64,000 bases of DNA from Synechococcus sp. (GCA_051439425.1 JBFRWD010000153.1:1-64000), one strand, 5' to 3'. Shown: positions 28,297 through 36,721, counted from the first letter of the stretch. Numbers and translations: made by a program. The notes: generated from the sequence alone by a model not told the origin.

Positions 28297-31200
28297 ATGT
28301 CAATTCAATCAGAACAATATCTAACCGACTCTATTTATAATGGTGAATCATTGAGTTTTGGTGAAATTAGTATAGCCAATTCTCAATTCCATCAAGGAAA
28401 TTACCATGGAGGAGCGGGAAGTCTTAGCAATGTAAATAGTCTACTCGATCGCGCTTCTAATGAAGTTATAGATAGCCTTCCAAATATATATGATTCTACA
28501 ATATATCTAGATGCCGACAAATCGGGTGACTCCAAAATATATACGTTTACCGAGCAGAAAGGGAAAACGTTTGAAAGTAGCTTCCACGTTAGAAGTCGTT
28601 TGACAGCAGGCGAGCTCACTACTGTTCAATCTCTGGACGGCGATGCAAATGAATCACCGACTTCTGCCGCAGCCATTATTGCTCCCAATCCGTTTTCAGA
28701 TGTCGACAATTTTGACTCTCGCTTGAATGGTAGCGTTCGCAATCAAGGCAATTGGCAGACCAATCAGCCAGGCTCTACTGATGGGGCGATCGTTACATCT
28801 ACTCCCCCTAATGAATTCTCGGGCAAGGCTTTGATGAACGATCCCAACGGAATTCAGTTCAGAGGAAATGCCTATAACCCCCTTGGCAGCTCCGCGATCG
28901 CCAACAATACCATCGGGACATTCTTTATTCAGATATATAACGATAGTCTGATTGGCTCGAATCTCAGCATTGGTCTTTCCGATGTTTCTGCGCCAGGTCT
29001 AGGATCTGACAATACGGGAACCCCTGTCTCCTTTGGAGACTATGAAATCCAAGTTACGTTTGCAAACGGAGAGTTGCGTGTACGCGATGGCAATCGTACC
29101 CGCAAGGTTAGCAATATAACTCTGCGAGACGATACACTCTATAACTTTTGGATGGTTGCGGATACCGGATCCGACACCTATAACGTCTATGTCCAAGGGG
29201 GAAATATCTCCAACCAAACTCAGTTAGCAGTCAATGGAAAAACTGACTTTGGATTCCGAAATGGTAGTGCCAGCTCCGATCTAACGACTTACTTACAGCT
29301 TAACGGTACGGCCAATCCGCCAACCGCAAAAAGCTATATTGACTCGCTGGCGATCGACCCCAACAATGACAATTTAGCAAATCCAGCCCCCAGCTTTTCA
29401 GCAGTCGAAACGTTTGAGGCGATTAGTGCTGGAAGTATTAATGGAAGACGGGGCTGGTCGACTTCCTCCAATAGCGCATCTGTTGTTTCGGATCCGGTAT
29501 CTAGCAATAACAAGGTTCTGCGGGTTACAGGGTCAAATGTCTATGCTCGAAAATCTACTCCGAACATCGGTGACGGGACTGACGGAACGCTGTTCTTCCG
29601 GCTGCGCCGTAGCGGTAGTTTAAACTCCAGTGCCGGTTTATCCGATCGCCCGCAGGCCACAACATGGTCCGATTTTGAAAACCAAATTGGATTCCAGAAT
29701 TCAAGTCAGCTCAAGATCCGAGATGGTGGCGCGTTTGATGTGACTGGAACCATTGCTCCCAATCTTTGGCATGGCGTTTGGCTGGTGACGGATAACGCTA
29801 CAGACACTTACGAAGTTTATGCCAGAGGCGGTAGCTTCAATACGGTAACTCAGCTAGTATCCGGTTCTCAAACCACTTTTAACTATCGAAATGGAACCAA
29901 TGGCGCGCTAAGCGATTTTCTTGTGCGCACTGGGTCAAATAACGGCGGCACGCTCCTAATCGACGATATTTATTTGGATAGCAGCGGCACCAATCTCAGC
30001 CTACCGGGATCGAATGGGATTGAATTTTCCCAGACCAATACAGCTCCTTTAAGCGATCCGATTCCCGAAACGATCGAACCGTCGGGCTTGTCCGTCACTT
30101 TAAACGAAATTGCCCAAATACCCGCCAGCCAGACGAATAAGCCGCTGGCTAGAATCAATTATTTGACCCATGCGAACGATAACAGCGATCGCCTCTTTGT
30201 TAATGATTTAAATGACAAGCTTTATGTCATCAATAACGGAACCGTTTCAACCTATCTCAATGTGAAAGCTCGGTTCCCAGACTTTGTCGATTCACCTAGA
30301 TTGGGCACGGGGTTTGGGTTCTTTGCATTTGCTCCTGACTTCGCCCAAAGTGGAAAGTTCTATACGGTTCATACAGAAGCAGGCAATGCGCTGTCAAAAC
30401 AGACAGATTACTCTCCAAAAACATCGACCTCAGTACATGGCATTATCACCGAATGGACGGCTCGCAATCCCGCAGCCAATACCTTTTCTGGAACCAAGCG
30501 GGAATTATTGCGGGTGGGGTTCGAAACTTTCCTACATGGTTTTCAGCAGATAGGATTTAACCCAACAGCTACACCTGGTTCACCAGACTACGGTTTGCTG
30601 TACCTTGCGGTGGGAGATGGCGAGCAAAATCCACTATTCTCCAATGGACCGCAGGATCTAAGCGTTCCTCATGGCAAAATTCTGCGTATCGATCCCGACG
30701 GCTCAAACAGCCCGAATAGAAAGTACGGTATTCCCAATAACAACCCGTTTGTCTCGCAAAATTCAGCCTTAGATGAAATCTGGGCTTACGGTTTGCGGAA
30801 TCCCCATAGATTTAGTTGGGATTCAGAAGGCAGCAACCAAATGTTTATCGGCAATATTGGGGAAAAGAATATAGAGTCTATCTACCCAGGTATTGCTGGA
30901 GCGAATTATGGATGGAATATTCGTGAGGGGGCATTTAGATTTGAGAAAGATGACCCAAATAATGTCTTTTCTCTACCTGCTAATGACGATCAATTTGGTA
31001 TTACCTATCCGGTCGCTCAGTGGGATCACGATGAAGGTCTGGCCGTAGTGGGAGGATTTGTCTATCGGGGGGATCACATCCCCCAACTCTCTGGAAAATA
31101 CATTTTTGGCGATATCGTTCGTGGGCGAATCTTTTATGCTGATGTAGACGATATGGTTTCGGGGTCACCTCCAGCACCGATTGAGGAGCTCCTTCTAAAG

Positions 31201-31400
31201 GATGTTGCCGGTAATCAGCAAACATTGTTAGACCTAGTCAATAGCAGGCGCGTAGATCTGAGATTCGGTATCGACGCAGATAACGGTATCTACATTCTTT
31301 CTAAACAAACAGGGCAAATTTGGAAGCTTGAGGATAATTCTGGTGGTCCGCTTCCTGGAGCAGGAGATGTGTTGCTCTTCAGTCTCAAGAATAGGGCAAC
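28297..31400 (+). pseudogene. 5' part of a large PQQ-dependent/glucose-sorbosone dehydrogenase-like beta-propeller protein, interrupted by a transposon
   Basis: GSDH motifs GLLYLAVGDG, GKILRIDP, EIWAYGLRNPHRFSWD, NYGW..REG, GGFVYRG..P.L.GKYIFGD; the frame continues at 35987 once the insertion is removed. Confidence 0.85.
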
Positions 31401-31625
31401 TGTTGAATCTCATTAAATTGTGCCCCTGAAAGTCCTGAAAAAGCGTACCGGTCATTAGGCAATGAAAATCCCCTTATTTTGAGACGGGGATTTTCGGTCA
31501 TTTCTGCTGGAAGCCGAGGTTTCACACTATGAGTTCTTGACTGTCTGTCCTGTAGTGGGTTGATGAGAGTGCCCCCCCCCCTACTCTCAGTAGAGAAAGC
31601 CAAGAGGAGCATAAATAATCGGCAC
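31401..31625 (+). repeat. Left long terminal inverted repeat
   Basis: Aligns by eye with the reverse complement of 35761-35986, including blocks CGGTCATTTCT.CTGGAAGCCGAGGTTT and TGATGAGAGTG. Confidence 0.85.
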
Positions 31626-31790
31626 TTATCTATAGTGGATAAAAACGGATATAGAGCATCCTTACGAAGGATATTGCAGACGATTTTTCGGGGTGCATCC
31701 CGAAAAATCGTACCGGCCTATAGGGTGTGGCGAAAACCCCTTCTGTCCGTCTGAATCGGAGTGAGGTTCCGTCGAGGACAGGCCGGGAGT

Positions 31791-33107
31791 ATGCGACCAC
31801 GAGGTCAACGGACGAATTTGTCTGAACGATTAGACATCGGTGAACGTGCTGCCAACGGTCAAAGCGATCGCCAGATCGCGGCAGAACTGGGCTGCTCTAG
31901 ATGGACAGTCCGAAAGTGGAGACGTAGGTTCCAGGTTCATGGACGGGAAGGACTTAGCAGGACACAAGGACGTCCAGTCACTGGCATTCTCAGTACCTTC
32001 CCAAGTGACTTGGCTGATGCCATCATCGAAATCCGTCAGGCCCATCCCGGCTGGGGAGCTGATTCCATTTTGCTGGAGCTTCATCTCGTACAAGGCTGGT
32101 CTAAATCCCAACTTCCCCATCGCTCGCGAGTGGCAGCATTTCTCCACCAGAAAGGACTCACTCGTCGCTATGAGTCTGGTGGCCTGCCTGAACCCAAACG
32201 GCAAACGGCGACTAAAGCTCATCAGGAATGGGAAATGGATGCTCAAGGGGCAACCCATGTGGAGGGAGTCGGCTCCGTTAGTCTGATTACCATTACCGAT
32301 GTGTACAGTCGGGTCAAAGTGGAAAGTTATCCCAGCCTCCAAAGCTGTAACCCCAGCACCGAAGACTATCAACTGGCCCTGCGTCGGGCTTTCATGAGTT
32401 TTGGACTTCCCCAACGGATAACCCTCGACCACGGCACCGTCTTCTACGACAACACCACTCCATCTCCTTGGCCGACTCGATTGCACATGTGGCTGCTGGC
32501 TTTGGGAGTAGACGTCTGTTTCACTCGCAAACGACGACCCACTGACCACGCCATCATTGAACGCACTCATCAAACCATGACCCAACAGGCCCTGAGTGGG
32601 CAAAGCTGGCCGAGTTCAGAAGCCTTGTGGGAAGGACTAGATTGTCGCCGCGAGGCTCTCAACCACCACTTACCCGTGCGGACGTTGGACAGACGTTCTC
32701 CTCTACAAGCATTTCCGGAAGCCAGCCATTCCCAGCGCTATTACAGCCCCGAGCGAGAGCCAGAGCTGCTTAACCCCCATCGCCTGTATGACTATCTGGC
32801 TGGTGGCCGCTGGTTTCGGCGCACCAACGGCAATGGCAACGTCCGGATTGGTGGATACAGCTACTATCTCAACTACCAACTGGACCGGAAGGAAGTCGAA
32901 CTGAGCTTCGATCCCAAAACGGTAGAATTCATTTGTCTAGTTGAGGGAGAATCAATTGCCCGCAGAGTCCGAGCCAAAGGGCTCAGTGTCACTAATTTGT
33001 TGGGGGAGATGGAGCAGTTTCTACGTCTGCCCAGCTATCAACTATCTCTGCCTTTTAGCCAGCAGGATTGGCGCAGTCTTCACTATGTTCAGTGCCAGGC
33101 GGCTTGA
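31791..33107 (+). CDS. DDE transposase (HTH + rve integrase core, IS481/Mu-like)
   Basis: HTH SDRQIAAELGCSRWTVRKWRRRF; HPGWG; catalytic triad WEMD / ITLDHG / IIERTH; alternative GTG start at 31761. Confidence 0.88.
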   Translation: MRPRGQRTNLSERLDIGERAANGQSDRQIAAELGCSRWTVRKWRRRFQVHGREGLSRTQGRPVTGILSTFPSDLADAIIEIRQAHPGWGADSILLELHLVQGWSKSQLPHRSRVAAFLHQKGLTRRYESGGLPEPKRQTATKAHQEWEMDAQGATHVEGVGSVSLITITDVYSRVKVESYPSLQSCNPSTEDYQLALRRAFMSFGLPQRITLDHGTVFYDNTTPSPWPTRLHMWLLALGVDVCFTRKRRPTDHAIIERTHQTMTQQALSGQSWPSSEALWEGLDCRREALNHHLPVRTLDRRSPLQAFPEASHSQRYYSPEREPELLNPHRLYDYLAGGRWFRRTNGNGNVRIGGYSYYLNYQLDRKEVELSFDPKTVEFICLVEGESIARRVRAKGLSVTNLLGEMEQFLRLPSYQLSLPFSQQDWRSLHYVQCQAA

Positions 33108-33168
33108 GGAAGACGTCCATCTTGCTAACCCAATAGAATGCTCTGCACTCAGTTCCGTGCAGGGGACT

Positions 33169-33386
33169 AGACCTCTTGCAAAAAGTTTCGTGATAGGTTG
33201 TTGGGCTTGTCTACGCCTTGAGCGAAAGGGCTTGCTTGCAGGGAACTGGATGCGACATACAGCAGGGAAACCCAACGAGTAGTGTTCTCCTGACAATGAA
33301 CTGCGAATCAGCCAAGCAATTGCGTCCCCAAGAGTTTAAGCGGCTTTGGGGTTCTTCGCCCAACCTTCAAACACATTGTCAAGGCT
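33169..33386 (+). mobile_element. IS5-family (IS702/ISL2-like) left-end remnant
   Basis: AGACCTCTTGCAAAA end and decayed transposase start MNCESAKQLRPQEFKRLWG. Confidence 0.6.
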
Positions 33387-33418
33387 ATTTCCAATGGCTG
33401 CAATTTTCACTGAACCAC

Positions 33419-33937
33419 CTATACGTCTTCGTTTACAGCAACATCCAGCTTAATTTCATCGGATTCCATGGCTTTCTTTAACTCGTTAACCAAGTCGATA
33501 CTTAGGGGATAATTGATGAGGTCACCGCCAAGTTCATATAAAATTTCCTTGACTGCTGGAGCGGACTCCAAATCTGTGATCATTACCAGCATGGAATGAC
33601 TGGGCTGGAGGGATTCTGCCATGCTCTTGAGCTTGTCATCAGGAAAGCCTGTATCGACAAATTTATCCGCCAGGAGCACGCCAGTAACAGCACCTGCTAC
33701 AGGAGTCGTTAACACACCCAGCGGAGCGCCAATCAGTACAGCAGCAGCACCTCGCTTCAAAGAATCCCCTAGATTTCGACCGTAAATTTCCTTGAATTTG
33801 ATTTTATTGTTCTCATCTTTAGTAAGGAGTGCGACATCGCCTCGCTTAAGTTTGTCTTGCTTCACCCGCTTAAAAGCATTTTTTGCTCCGTCCAGGGTGT
33901 TAAAGTCCGCGATCATCAATTGCATGGATACAGTCAT
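33419..33937 (-). CDS. DUF1269-like membrane-associated protein (transposon cargo)
   Basis: DVALLTKDE..KIK, Gly/Ala-rich hydrophobic segment, DTGFPDD.LK...ESLQPSHS.LV. Confidence 0.7.
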   Translation of the reverse strand: MTVSMQLMIADFNTLDGAKNAFKRVKQDKLKRGDVALLTKDENNKIKFKEIYGRNLGDSLKRGAAAVLIGAPLGVLTTPVAGAVTGVLLADKFVDTGFPDDKLKSMAESLQPSHSMLVMITDLESAPAVKEILYELGGDLINYPLSIDLVNELKKAMESDEIKLDVAVNEDV

Positions 33938-34184
33938 GTGTTGCTCCTTCTATCAAGTTGAGAGAATGTCTTGAGTTATGAAAAATCCTGTGGTGATGCC
34001 ACGGCTAACTATGCGTTATCTGGTCGGGTAGGCAGGATTATTTGGTATGGTCCAGCTACCCTTAATCAAGATAATAAAGAGATTAGACCCTGGCTGCCTG
34101 ACGCATCTATATCTAACACTTGATATCTCGTAGAGTACGGTCAATCAGCTGTCTGATGCAGAGCAGGAGTATCGGTCTCTGGAG

Positions 34185-34240
34185 AGAGTTTAAGCAGCTT
34201 TGGGGTTCTTCGCCCAACCTTCAAACAGATGGTCAAGGCT
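34185..34240 (+). repeat. Second copy of a 56-bp IS5-derived segment (first copy 33331-33386)
   Basis: AGAGTTTAAGC.GCTTTGGGGTTCTTCGCCCAACCTTCAAACA.AT.GTCAAGGCT present twice in direct orientation. Confidence 0.85.
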
Positions 34241-34577
34241 TTCCCCGAATGAGCGAGGAGTCTATTGGATCTCCCGAGTTCCCGACTCTGCCTTAATGAC
34301 GTGCCACGGTCTCAGACCCCGGTGGACCCTCGGGGGCCATGGCGATAGGCTCCTCCTGTGTAGCCTTCCGCTCTTCCTAAGGCGTCGGCATCCACGGTTG
34401 TTATTCATACGGGGCTCAATCCCTTCACGCTTGCGCATTGCGGCCCATCATTTCCCTGTGTACGCTTCACTGACGACGTTACCGACGCCAGCGCAACACT
34501 CGGTATCCGTGCCTTGCCAGGGCTTACGGAGATAGGACTTTCACCTAACAGACAGAGCCGAGCGAAGCTCGGCACAC
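34241..34577 (-). ncRNA. 5' fragment (domain I) of a group II intron, truncated
   Basis: Minus strand begins GTGTGCCG (GUGYG consensus), followed by domain-I-like motifs AGGTGAAAGTCCT, GGTAAC...TGAAGCGTACACAG, GATTGAGCCCCG, GCGGAAGGC, GGAACTCGGGAGA; no RT ORF or domain V. Confidence 0.75.
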
Positions 34578-34660
34578 AGGAAGTGGAATATTTCGTGAGA
34601 ATTATCAGGAAGTTCTGGCTTGTAGCGAAAAATATTACCGTGGCTCATGAAGAAGGACCA

Positions 34661-35644
34661 ATGACAAAAAAGCGGCGTTTTCTTAGCTCAGATTTTTTGA
34701 AGGGATTAGGAATTCTTGCGGTAGTTACGGCCATAAGTTCTTTTCCCATAACAGCACATGCCAATGAGCGACGGGCAGTGAATGGTTGTATCGGACAAGT
34801 TGAGACTGTGGGCGGTCCTGATGCCCAGGATGGTATTGAAGTTCTCAGCTCCGAATTTTCTGAAGCAGGCACGCTCGTAAAGCTTCGAGATTCCGGTGGA
34901 ACTGTTTGGAGGTGTATAGGCTACTCAGATGGTAGCGTTGGAGACTTGGCTGTTCAGATTGAACCAGATGACCCTGTTGCATACCTGCAAGACCTTATCG
35001 GAGTCCGAGGTCGCGATGGTGAGCGGCAGCTACAACACCGTGGATACGTCAATACAGGCGGTGATGTCAGAGACAATAGTGTCCTCACCTATTGGGAAAA
35101 TGAAGCTTCTGGAGAATGCATCGAAGTTGTCACCCGAAATGGAGACTATCGCAGAATCTCTGCCTCTGATACTTCTAACTGTGCTAACGCTGAGCATGGT
35201 TCAGATGTCGCTGTAACGCATGCTCCCACTCGACAGGAACAATTCAACACCGTTTGTGGTGTGCTTGTCGGTTCTGACCGATATCAATATACTTGCGACC
35301 TAACGAACTACTATCACGGTACATCTCTGGTGAAGTCGGAATTGATTTATCCAGACAACGAGTTGACCCTCCTGTGGAGACAAGGAGGGAATGTCACCAT
35401 CCAATTCCCTGGATTAGTCGATCAGACAGGAACTTATTCTATCTACGAAGGAGAGACGGATATTTTCTTTGAGGATAAAACCTACTATTACTACTCAGAC
35501 CCAGAGTTCGCCGCTTCTGAGCTTCGTCACTTAGGCTCTTCTTCAAGTACAGCAACGTCCCACCGTACAACAGAAGAGGTCGACCCTACAGAAGAAGCCG
35601 TTGGTAATATCATCCAGGGTATTGGCGAGTTACTCTCCAATTAG
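34661..35644 (+). CDS. Secreted Cys-containing hypothetical protein (transposon cargo)
   Basis: Signal peptide MTKKRRF...ITAHA; three modules each with a Cys pair; AGAAGGA RBS. Confidence 0.75.
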   Translation: MTKKRRFLSSDFLKGLGILAVVTAISSFPITAHANERRAVNGCIGQVETVGGPDAQDGIEVLSSEFSEAGTLVKLRDSGGTVWRCIGYSDGSVGDLAVQIEPDDPVAYLQDLIGVRGRDGERQLQHRGYVNTGGDVRDNSVLTYWENEASGECIEVVTRNGDYRRISASDTSNCANAEHGSDVAVTHAPTRQEQFNTVCGVLVGSDRYQYTCDLTNYYHGTSLVKSELIYPDNELTLLWRQGGNVTIQFPGLVDQTGTYSIYEGETDIFFEDKTYYYYSDPEFAASELRHLGSSSSTATSHRTTEEVDPTEEAVGNIIQGIGELLSN

Positions 35645-35760
35645 TCATCAACTCAAATAAGTTGAAGATGTCAATAGTGGGCTCACTAGTTTAGGCTGGG
35701 CTATCTGTCGCTCAGCTTAACTCTTCCACGTTTAGGATCTACTGGTGAAATTGGACTTAT

Positions 35761-35986
35761 TGCCAGTTAGTTATAGTCCTCCTGGCTTGCTCCATGAGAG
35801 CAGGGTGGTTGGAGACACTCTCATCACCTCTCCACAGAACAGGTAATCGAGATTTCATAGGGCTAAACCTCGGCTTCCAGTAGAAATGACCGAGAATCCC
35901 CTTACCTTGAAAGGAGGATTCTTGTTGCCTCGAAACCGGCACGATTTTTCAAGACTTTGAGGGGTACGGTTTATCGAGATTCAACA
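35761..35986 (-). repeat. Right long terminal inverted repeat
   Basis: Reverse complement reads TGTTGAATCTCGATAAACCGTACCCCTCAAAGTCTTGAAAAATCGTGCCGG..., matching the left end. Confidence 0.85.
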
Positions 35987-36721
35987 GCAACGTTATCTGG
36001 ACTGAATGTGGCGGATGAGGATATTATTCGTTACGAAAATAATTCTTTCGAACGTTTTTTCGATGGTTCTGATGTGGGTCTTTCGGGTGTCGAGATTTCT
36101 GCTTTTGATGCCATTAATAGTAATGAAATCCTATTATCCTTCGATAAACCAATCAATTTACCAGGTCTAGGCAGGGTCGATGATTCCGATGTGGTGAAAT
36201 TCATCGGTTCGTCCCTAGGCAACAGGACTAGTGGGAGGTTTGAGTTTTATCTGGATGGCAGCGATGTCGGGTTGGGCAAAGATGGGGAAGATATTGATGC
36301 TTTGGCATTGCAGTCAGATGGCACATTACTGCTCTCGACCATTGGTAATGCGTACCTCCCAGGCATAAGACAGGCTGCGGATGAAGATGTTATTAAGTTC
36401 ACCCCAAATTCTCTGGGGCGAAATTCTCGAGGACGCTGGAGCCGATATTTCGATGGTAGTGATGTTGGCCTGGCAAACAATGGCGGAGAAGATATTGACG
36501 CTCTTACCCTCGATACGGGCGATCGCATTGTGCTCTCGACTCAGGGTAATTTCTCAGTGAGAAGTTTATCTGGTAAGGATGAAGATGCATTTTCGTTTAG
36601 AGCATCGTCTACAGGGTCGAATACATCTGGTTCTTTTGGACCTGGATTGATCTTTGACGGTAGTCAATTTAGTTTGGGGAATAACGATATTTCTGGTCTA
36701 GATCGGAAGATTGAGATGTAG
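35987..36721 (+). pseudogene. 3' part of the interrupted dehydrogenase-like gene (FDGSDVGL repeat domain)
   Basis: In frame with 28297-31400 across the TSD; repeats DED(I/V)..F...(F/L)DGSDVGL...EDIDAL. Confidence 0.8.

Follow-up and report, generated by a model that had tools for sequence, protein, structure and literature searches.

The 64,000-nt stretch of a Synechococcus sp. genome analysed here (GCA_051439425.1 JBFRWD010000153.1:1-64000; hereafter the window) contains a long gene that is split by a 4,586-bp element at 31401-35986, which begins with TGT, ends with ACA and is flanked by an exact 5-bp target-site duplication, GCAAC, at 31396-31400 and 35987-35991. The N-terminal 1,034 codons of the interrupted gene lie upstream (28297-31400, plus strand) and encode a GSDH-type domain (Pfam GSDH, 1.2e-25), while the C-terminal 243 codons lie downstream (35992-36721, plus strand), where they were recognised from nine matches in the same genome and from comparison of the junctions. 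Between the two pieces are a single transposase gene, passenger DNA and two long inverted arms. The HIP1 site GCGATCGC, a marker of cyanobacteria, occurs 4,092 times in the genome against 81 expected, so that the genome is that of a cyanobacterium. With a probability of roughly three in four, we consider the element to be a passenger-carrying insertion sequence (IS) of the transporter-IS type, belonging to a large IS481-like clade and inserted as one 4.6-kb unit.

The left junction (31396-31411) reads GCAAC followed by TGTTGAATCTC and the right junction (35976-35991) reads GAGATTCAACA followed by GCAAC. Deletion of 31401-35991 leaves 3,834 nt, which form 1,277 codons in frame and one terminal stop. 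Two paralogues on contig C72 of the same genome are uninterrupted at the homologous junction, running from ...LLFSLKKNQT directly into INGL..., where the left piece in the window ends with ...LLFSLKNRA and the right piece begins with TLSGL.... As six genomes of the same family yielded no orthologue of the interrupted gene, an empty site was sought in public reads, and a single Logan contig, from run X2 of another study, links 31395 to 35987 with 4,591 bases skipped. Five letters at this joint fit either side, 39 letters lie on its short side and the aligned flanks differ at 11 of 596 letters. The insertion is genuine, and a 4.6-kb unit split the host gene. The first-pass annotation had claimed TGT...ACA ends with an exact 5-bp duplication, an in-frame split of a 1277-aa gene and one mobile unit with a single DDE transposase and passenger DNA; both junctions read as it described, and the joined frame, the C72 paralogues and the empty-site contig bear out the rest. 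For annotation, the 254-aa open reading frame (ORF) at 35957 is a gene fragment. The 242-aa C-terminal piece has nine matches in its own genome, mostly within long open frames (737-1,560 aa). As a separate observation, this C-terminal module of about 240 aa (35993-36718) consists of GxDxDAL-like repeated units, ends at least nine large proteins of the genome, is present on contigs C72, C140, C132 and C33 and has no matching Pfam family.

The transposase gene (31791-33107, plus strand) encodes 438 aa from a conserved start set by alignment with 13 relatives, within an ORF that is open from 31761 (31761-33107, 448 aa) and that matches the Pfam helix-turn-helix (HTH) families HTH_23 and HTH_28 and the integrase core family rve. 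In the alignment of the window protein with these relatives (n=14), D160, D223 and E267 are invariant, in keeping with a DDE transposase; the residue at E267+7 is T in the window protein and variable among members, with no K or R, and an invariant Q stands at +9. Of the roughly 440 aa of the transposase, some 130 form an additional conserved region at the C-terminus. Among NCBIfam models the IS481 model NF033577 ranks first (132.8 bits, E 1.6e-38, profile positions 2-284), below its cut-off of 224 bits. Other scores were 57.5 bits for IS3, 53.8 for IS21 and 28.5 for the IS1202-type ISNCY_2 model NF033594, whose cut-off is 250 bits and with which the positive control, ISAjo2 from pAF-401, scored 492.5 bits; ISAjo2 itself shares 22% identity over 182 aa with the window transposase (E 0.009).

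Of 7,999 candidates scored in a protein database search, 993 were homologues at E<=0.001, and the 120 matches listed are mostly 438-442 aa long and encoded on short contigs, the nearest (P0001) being 89% identical on a contig of 2,441 bp; cluster names were uninformative. The nearest annotated matches on plasmids are of the IS481 family (23-29% identity), and there was no ISNCY match among the best 60 of 491 plasmid records at E<=1. Based on the model scores, the ISAjo2 comparison, the homologue set and the plasmid matches, the clade forms a separate branch near IS481 and IS1202 and does not belong to IS1202. The suggestion in the first-pass annotation of a possibly undescribed family is overstated in that the transposase is no isolated novelty but sits in a clade of 993 homologues, and its nearest model is IS481. 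A large IS481-like clade is hereby documented that no NCBIfam IS model captures above its cut-off, and similar elements are liable to be mislabelled as plain "integrase core domain" genes.

The sole transposase paralogue in this genome lies in a simple IS of 1,518 bp (C64:36188-37705), which encodes a 56% identical protein and has 26-bp repeats starting with TGTTGAG and mismatched 5-bp flanks (GCTTC and GCTAG); no second full copy of the 4.6-kb element is present in the genome. The genomes of 60 relatives gave no transposase match at E<=1e-60, only two of 400 other genomes at class level gave one at E<=1e-80, and a scan of genome contigs with the single protein returned one unrelated 40% partial match. 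Since the clade is rare in the cyanobacteria sampled, the anatomy of the family was taken from metagenome contigs. The metagenome scan, based on alignment, yielded 506 confirmed stretches, and the top 80 were retained. Terminus pairs were found in 54 of these 80 loci, the 26 unpaired loci being mostly cut by contig ends, and removal of duplicates by flank left 46 distinct elements; four loci (L094, L097, L098 and L100) with a 1,948-bp pair without TGT termini were excluded from the counts.

Thirty-three of the 46 elements are simple (1,461-1,681 bp) and 13 carry cargo (2,237-6,245 bp). Their ends contain two direct repeats of about 24 bp each, with TGTYGAGTCTCG.AAA.TCGTACC occurring twice, and inverted matches found by BLAST span 17-158 bp overall and 18-111 bp at delimited elements, reaching up to about 18 bp beyond the terminus. 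A flank duplication of 4-5 bp was seen at seven of the 33 simple elements (three could not be judged) and at eight of the 13 cargo-bearing ones. By Pfam, the passengers of the 13 elements include pentapeptide-repeat proteins (two), GNAT, APH, Vgb-lyase family, protein kinase-WD40, Imm5-like, bestrophin-like, 8xMP and DUF6585 proteins, and three have no family. With 13 of 46 relatives carrying it, cargo moved with a single transposase is common in the clade, and one transposase of this clade often carries a single passenger gene. Passenger-carrying elements such as the one inferred in the first-pass annotation are also on record for IS481 and IS1202 relatives (PMC6794481; bioRxiv 10.1101/2022.12.17.520857). 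As a side observation, loci L056, L062, L043, L052 and L083, all from soil, each carry a single passenger from the APH, Vgb-lyase, GNAT or pentapeptide-repeat family, some members of which are drug-modifying or drug-protecting proteins.

In the window element, a repeat finder delimited the inverted arms as 31400-31576 and 35811-35987 (177 nt ungapped, 76% complementary), and with gaps allowed the two ends stay alignable as far as about column 228 (mean column identity 81%), with a weaker match up to about 260, in agreement with the earlier figure of about 225 bp. The left arm (31401-31656, plus strand) opens with TGT and continues with two transposase-site-like repeats, each roughly 24 bp long and together reaching about 31452, then with conserved subterminal sequence that includes a hairpin at 31464-31495, and with a palindromic site; contigs from X1-X3 and an arm found in the cyanobacterial draft genome G157 depart from the window after 31656. 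By alignment, the right arm (35727-35986, minus strand) is its inverted counterpart. Left repeat 2 (31431-31449, plus strand) differs at one position from the 19-nt motif AGTCTYGNAAAANCGTRCC and is the best-kept candidate transposase-binding site of the left end, and on the minus strand of the right end (35938-35981) repeat 2 (35938-35956) and repeat 1 (35963-35981) have zero and two mismatches to the motif. With up to three mismatches allowed, the 64-kb window contains four copies of the motif, at 31431 (+), 31696 (+), 35938 (-) and 35963 (-), against 0.44 expected. The shorter pattern AAANCGTRCC likewise occurs four times in the window, always in the end regions, with three copies in the outer 50 bp or so and the fourth about 305 bp inward of the left terminus.

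As the motif copies are confined to the end regions, the outer ~52 bp alone are typical of the family: they constitute its bipartite repeat, and no site array makes up the other 175-210 bp at either end. The arms had also been considered as binding-site arrays, which the motif counts (two at the right end and two to three at the left) rule out. Of the unusually long ends described in the first-pass annotation, the likeness over about 225-260 bp therefore stands, and what does not extend that far is the repeat motif of the clade. Its treatment of the arms as something other than independent miniature inverted-repeat transposable elements (MITEs) also stands, since neither arm contains an inner inverted terminus and the empty-site contig skips all 4,591 bp at once. 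A palindromic ATAA-N7-TTAT site in the left arm (31612-31636, plus strand) was found by regular-expression match, and that of the right arm (about 35735-35775) is broken by 11 extra bases. The hairpin at 31464-31495 is kept in three arm copies, with changes on both sides at two pairs, and is not clearly kept in the G157 arm when judged by eye, which offers a faint hint that it is conserved. No Rfam family matched the arms, and a scan for promoters and terminators gave no more matches than in shuffled sequence.

A second, inner set of end-like sequence precedes the transposase gene. A palindrome of 16+16 bp at 31680-31716 (plus strand, 94% complementary) has as its right half an inner repeat-2-like site (motif match at 31696-31714), which aligns, at 31696-31716, with repeat 2 of the left ends of L024 and L025 within a related leader and lies about 75 nt from the transposase ATG as it does in those elements, which are about 1.7 kb long and encode transposases 71% identical to that of the window. 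No repeat 1 precedes the inner site in the alignment to the left ends of L024 and L025. An inner repeat 2 without repeat 1 indicates that the terminal repeat once belonging to the transposase core (about 31657-33162) has been lost, which leaves the core bounded by the arms. Contigs contain simple forms, in which X1 joins 33162 directly to 35938, X2 joins the stop-codon region at 33108 to an inverted 50-bp end (the reverse of 31450) and X3 joins 31754 to an inverted end (the reverse of 35935); these forms and L024 and L025, all close relatives, have no long extra stretch in their ends. We rate the arms as inherited accessory DNA with which simple relatives dispense. A long conserved arm with a copy of the target was not reported for IS481 or IS1202 relatives in the literature searched, a search that left ISfinder, TnCentral and a preprint supplement outside its scope.

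To describe the target, 84 unique 30-nt flanks from loci L024-L103 were compared. The base at position -7 is A in 72 of them, and A[TC]AA stands exactly 5 or 6 nt from the terminus in 51, against zero or one at offsets of 3, 4, 7 and 8; such half-sites often occur on both sides of an element. At sites with an intact duplication the sequence before insertion reads ATAA-N-[5 bp]-N-TTAT, often with longer palindromic arms, as in ..TCGCATAA. Because the half-sites lie 5-6 nt from the termini and often on both sides, insertion falls within the spacer: the clade prefers the 7-bp spacer of ATAA-N7-TTAT palindromes, and the window site, ATAG-G-GCAAC-G-TTAT, fits this pattern. In the accessible text of bioRxiv 10.1101/2022.12.17.520857, an Xer site is given as 11-bp arms around a 6-8-bp centre. 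The clade target is built alike, the likeness being one of sequence architecture, with the element lying within the centre rather than next to a complete site. Palindromic targets built like Xer sites are thus markedly preferred by this clade. In addition, most simple relatives among L025-L103 that could be judged have no matching duplication although half-sites are present in both flanks.

The arm also occurs away from the element. A third copy of about 250 bp stands alone at C94:64431 (-), beside ordinary genes, and a fourth is found in G157, which belongs to another cyanobacterial family, with 76% identity over 256 nt; run X2 yielded a 180-nt match to the right arm. No transposase match was found in G157, which like G001, a sister species, is a draft genome, an assembly type in which repeats are often unassembled. 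Pairwise identities are 72% between the left and right arms, 75% between the left arm and that of G157, 65% between the left arm and C94 and 71% between the right arm and that of G157, so the likeness between the two arms of the element does not exceed their likeness to an arm from another family. Arms that are 72% alike, set against flanks differing at only 11 of 596 letters from those of the empty-site organism, indicate that the two-armed structure predates the insertion. The arm is an old recurrent module. As for the further copies and empty sites of each end to which the first-pass annotation had pointed, lone arms (C94 and G157) and an empty site (X2) were recovered and a second full copy was not. 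Solo short ends with both 24-bp repeats are also present at C96:7810 (+) and C140:22909 (-), and neither these nor the C94 arm has a partner end or transposase nearby. In G001, which gave no match to a transposase of the clade, a MITE of about 298 bp with 50-bp family-type ends and an unrelated interior was observed (G001:C45, L121 3369-3666).

Each arm terminates in a ~50-bp site, TAAATAA-N7-TTATCTATAGTGGAT..., whose architecture is that of the clade's target. This site is found alone in the same genome (C146:1086, C178:6673, C83:3727 and C4:36863), in G001 (C5:1-53, C58:1697 and C45:13460, two of them at contig ends) and in G157 (C115, C710 and C627), and is a conserved intergenic site with several copies in each of three cyanobacterial genomes; the palindromic site (about 60 bp, five loci) matched no Rfam family. 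Relatives are inserted in its spacer at L026, L028 and on one X2 contig. In G157 (L120 3681-4781, C513) the arm site is accompanied by a second, inverted site 830 bp away, and the pair brackets a PIN-domain gene and a 91-aa ORF, with a PrlF/YhaV-type pair beyond; in the window the two arm sites bracket the transposase and passengers. We put forward, as a speculative and rather unlikely extension, that the 260-bp arms are portable ends of a cyanobacterial modular carrier system in which inverted site pairs bracket exchangeable modules, the module being the transposase with its passengers in the window and a PIN toxin module in G157. Site-specific recombination would then swap cargo between the arms and the transposase would move the bracketed DNA, with each arm combining two transposase repeats, a conserved structured stretch and an intact target palindrome of Xer (dif/xrs)-like build. 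Such a system would resemble the pdif modules of Acinetobacter plasmids, but here coupled to a DDE transposon.

Besides the HTH + rve transposase, the element contains two ORFs, a DUF1269 gene (33419-33937, minus strand) and a 376-aa ORF (34514-35644). The 3' tail of the IS core (33108-33162, plus strand) contains a hairpin (33143-33162) and, in the simple X1 relative, runs straight into the terminal 49 bp. The 2,775 bp between 33162 and 35938 consist, in this order, of an intron-like unit with the DUF1269 segment inside it, then a gene for a 328-aa protein, and then the right arm. The group II intron-like unit (33168-34577, minus strand) begins with GTGTG at 34577-34573 and has a D1-D4 match at 34541-34307 (Rfam RF02005, positions 1-225 of 225, 135.8 bits, E 1.5e-39); its boundaries were drawn from contig loose ends at 33168 and 34573 together with the sequence. 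Domains V and VI had no Rfam match at E<=1 in 31000-36400 or at E<=10 in 33120-33420, and no intron reverse transcriptase was found, the sole ORF on that strand being the DUF1269 gene. Judged from these matches, part of the cargo is the 5' portion of a group II intron, a remnant. The "unrelated cargo" of the first-pass annotation accordingly holds in that passengers are present and needs amending in that part of it is this intron remnant, which is a lesson for the annotation of such elements.

Two copies of a 56-nt direct repeat, 95% identical by the repeat finder, lie on either side of the DUF1269 segment at 33331-33386 and 34185-34240. The DUF1269 gene encodes 172 aa (Pfam PF06897, 3.9e-08) and is present once in the genome by tblastn; some contigs from X1 and X4 have no counterpart of the 854 bp between 33344 and 34199 that make up the DUF1269 segment. 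The remaining passenger gene (34658-35644, plus strand), which lies within the 376-aa ORF, encodes the 328-aa protein with a signal-peptide-like N-terminus and has no Pfam or NCBIfam family. Its product has 122 homologues at E<=0.001, for the most part of 200-215 aa, and 116 of the 120 listed are 198-228 aa long and unnamed or annotated as "hypothetical". An ATPase helper was not found among the three element ORFs scanned with Pfam and NCBIfam, as the first-pass annotation had stated. A compound (composite) transposon was considered and rejected, the element having a single transposase gene and no transposase remnant in the right arm.

Several observations count against a passenger-carrying insertion sequence that arrived as one unit. 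Left repeat 1 is degenerate, with more than three mismatches to the motif. Among the contigs listed, the source-like run X1 covers the interior in six pieces, with breaks at 31656-31667, 32388-32473, 32862-33013, 33373-33899 and 34227-34409 and alternative continuations at 31656, so that the internal order rests on the genome assembly. Both the intron-like unit and the 854-bp segment with DUF1269 may have been acquired once the element was already in place. Of the 30 simple relatives that could be judged, 23 have no matching duplication, which suggests later exchange between copies or between sites, and as there is no second full copy, repeated transposition of the exact unit lacks support. 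A simple IS of about 1.8 kb might instead have inserted and gained its passengers and long right arm later, the 4.6-kb unit never having moved whole. Such growth in place would fit the simple forms of close relatives (33162 joined to 35938, 33108 joined to the reverse of 31450, L024 and L025), the group II intron that starts the passenger block, group II introns being mobile in their own right, and the polymorphism of the 854-bp DUF1269 segment among contigs. We nevertheless think it unlikely. The subterminal 175 bp of the right arm lie outside the passengers, beside the terminal repeat, and are 72% identical to the left arm, and the flanks are about 98% identical to those of the empty-site organism, so the two-armed structure is older than the insertion; moreover the arm is found in other genomes, and no mechanism suggests itself that would put both a 1.4-kb ORF segment and an arm in the interval from the tail hairpin to the terminal repeat.

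It is also conceivable, though improbable in our estimation, that MITE-like arms define the unit and were moved in trans, the enclosed core being trapped and maybe inactive. The arms of G157, where no transposase match was found, the MITE of about 298 bp with family ends in G001, the solo arm at C94 and a core without its own left terminal repeat are all consistent with such a carrier. However, the enclosed transposase is of full length and has all residues that are invariant across the 14 members, and its gene is the sole close transposase source found in the genome, that on C64 being 56% identical and having other end sequences; the draft state of G157 and G001, which often leaves repeats unassembled, further weakens the case. 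Very little probability attaches to a Tn7-, Tn5053-, Tn552- or Mu-like element with complex ends whose helpers are elsewhere or lost. Tn7, Mu, Tn552 and Tn5053 duplicate 5 bp of target, and their functional ends are long, contain several transposase sites and terminate in TGT; the TGT...ACA ends, 5-bp duplication, rve transposase and more than one site-like repeat per end of the window element recall these systems. The best models are however those of IS481, IS3 and IS21, not of TnsB or MuA types, no ATPase family is encoded in the three ORFs scanned, the 33 distinct relatives of about 1.5 kb consist of a transposase gene alone between repeats, and the two motif copies at the right end and two to three at the left form no arrays, the motif at each terminus being restricted to the outer ~52 bp.

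For the favoured reading, a passenger-carrying IS481-like insertion sequence that moved in whole, we start from what was read directly, namely the insertion with its boundaries, its family assignment, how the repeats are arranged, which target is preferred, the recurrence of the arm and the intact catalytic residues, and infer repeat binding, chemistry and current activity from these. The HTH-rve DDE transposase would bind the pair of ~24-bp direct repeats that occupies the outermost ~52 bp at either end, cleave at the TGT/ACA termini and join the ends with a 5-bp stagger, preferably within an ATAA-N7-TTAT palindrome, in its 7-bp spacer. Movement would probably be of the copy-out-paste-in type through a circle, to judge from IS481, IS3 and IS1202 relatives; in the available text of the respective reports IS481 movement is termed "copy-paste" (PMC6794481) and ISKpn21 circles carry 5 bp between their ends (bioRxiv 10.1101/2022.12.17.520857). 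A circle junction from 35986 to 31401 was not present among the contig joints, contigs being unable to reveal rare forms. A candidate operator is the palindrome at 31680-31711, which precedes the ATG by about 80 nt. Each long end would consist of the 52-bp bipartite repeat and a conserved accessory arm of about 200 bp that is older than the insertion, and the transposase core, having lost its own outermost left repeat, would now sit with the passengers between two such arms.

Among known systems, the element shares with the IS481 family a single HTH + rve DDE transposase, TGT-initiated inverted repeats and a short duplication (TGTTGA ends and 5 bp here). TnRErm46 (ISRe46), an IS481 element of Rhodococcus equi, is described in the consulted section of PMC6794481 as a 6.9-kb unit with seven ORFs, an inverted repeat starting with TGTTGC and a 6-bp repeat, and in both TnRErm46 and the window element one transposase moves passengers. 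Direct repeats of IS481 elements are given as 2-15 bp, mostly 6, in the portion of PMC10045372 available, whereas those of the window clade are 4-5 bp. The clade further differs from IS481 in its palindromic target in place of NCTAGN, in transposases of about 440 aa with an extra C-terminal region, in having no K or R at E+7 and in falling below the model cut-off, and the window element differs in its 260-bp arms. The ISAba32 subgroup of IS1202 (ISAjo2 and ISKpn21) comprises, in the text seen of bioRxiv 10.1101/2022.12.17.520857, elements of 1.3-2 kb with transposases of 400-500 aa, TGT ends, 5-6-bp repeats, occasional passengers and an association with Xer-like sites. Size class, TGT ends, short repeats, occasional passengers and Xer-site-like targets are thus held in common. 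ISAjo2 however has Q at E+7 (ER..TLQ) where the window transposase has T, and ISAba32-type elements lie 5-6 bp beside a whole site at the left end only, whereas those of the window clade lie within the spacer between half-sites.

Transporter IS (tIS), which combine an IS-like organisation with passenger genes, are described in the part of bioRxiv 10.1101/2021.05.26.445724 available as restricted to IS1595 and IS66. The same organisation of one transposase, inverted repeats, a direct repeat and passengers is present here and in 13 of 46 distinct relatives, but the window transposase is IS481-like and the ends of the window element are far longer than the usual inverted repeat. We conclude that the element is not a new kind of element, cargo with one transposase being already known, and that the long arm is its unusual feature: it is a transporter-IS-like member of a large, little-described IS481-like clade, set apart by 260-bp arms that carry the target palindrome of the clade.

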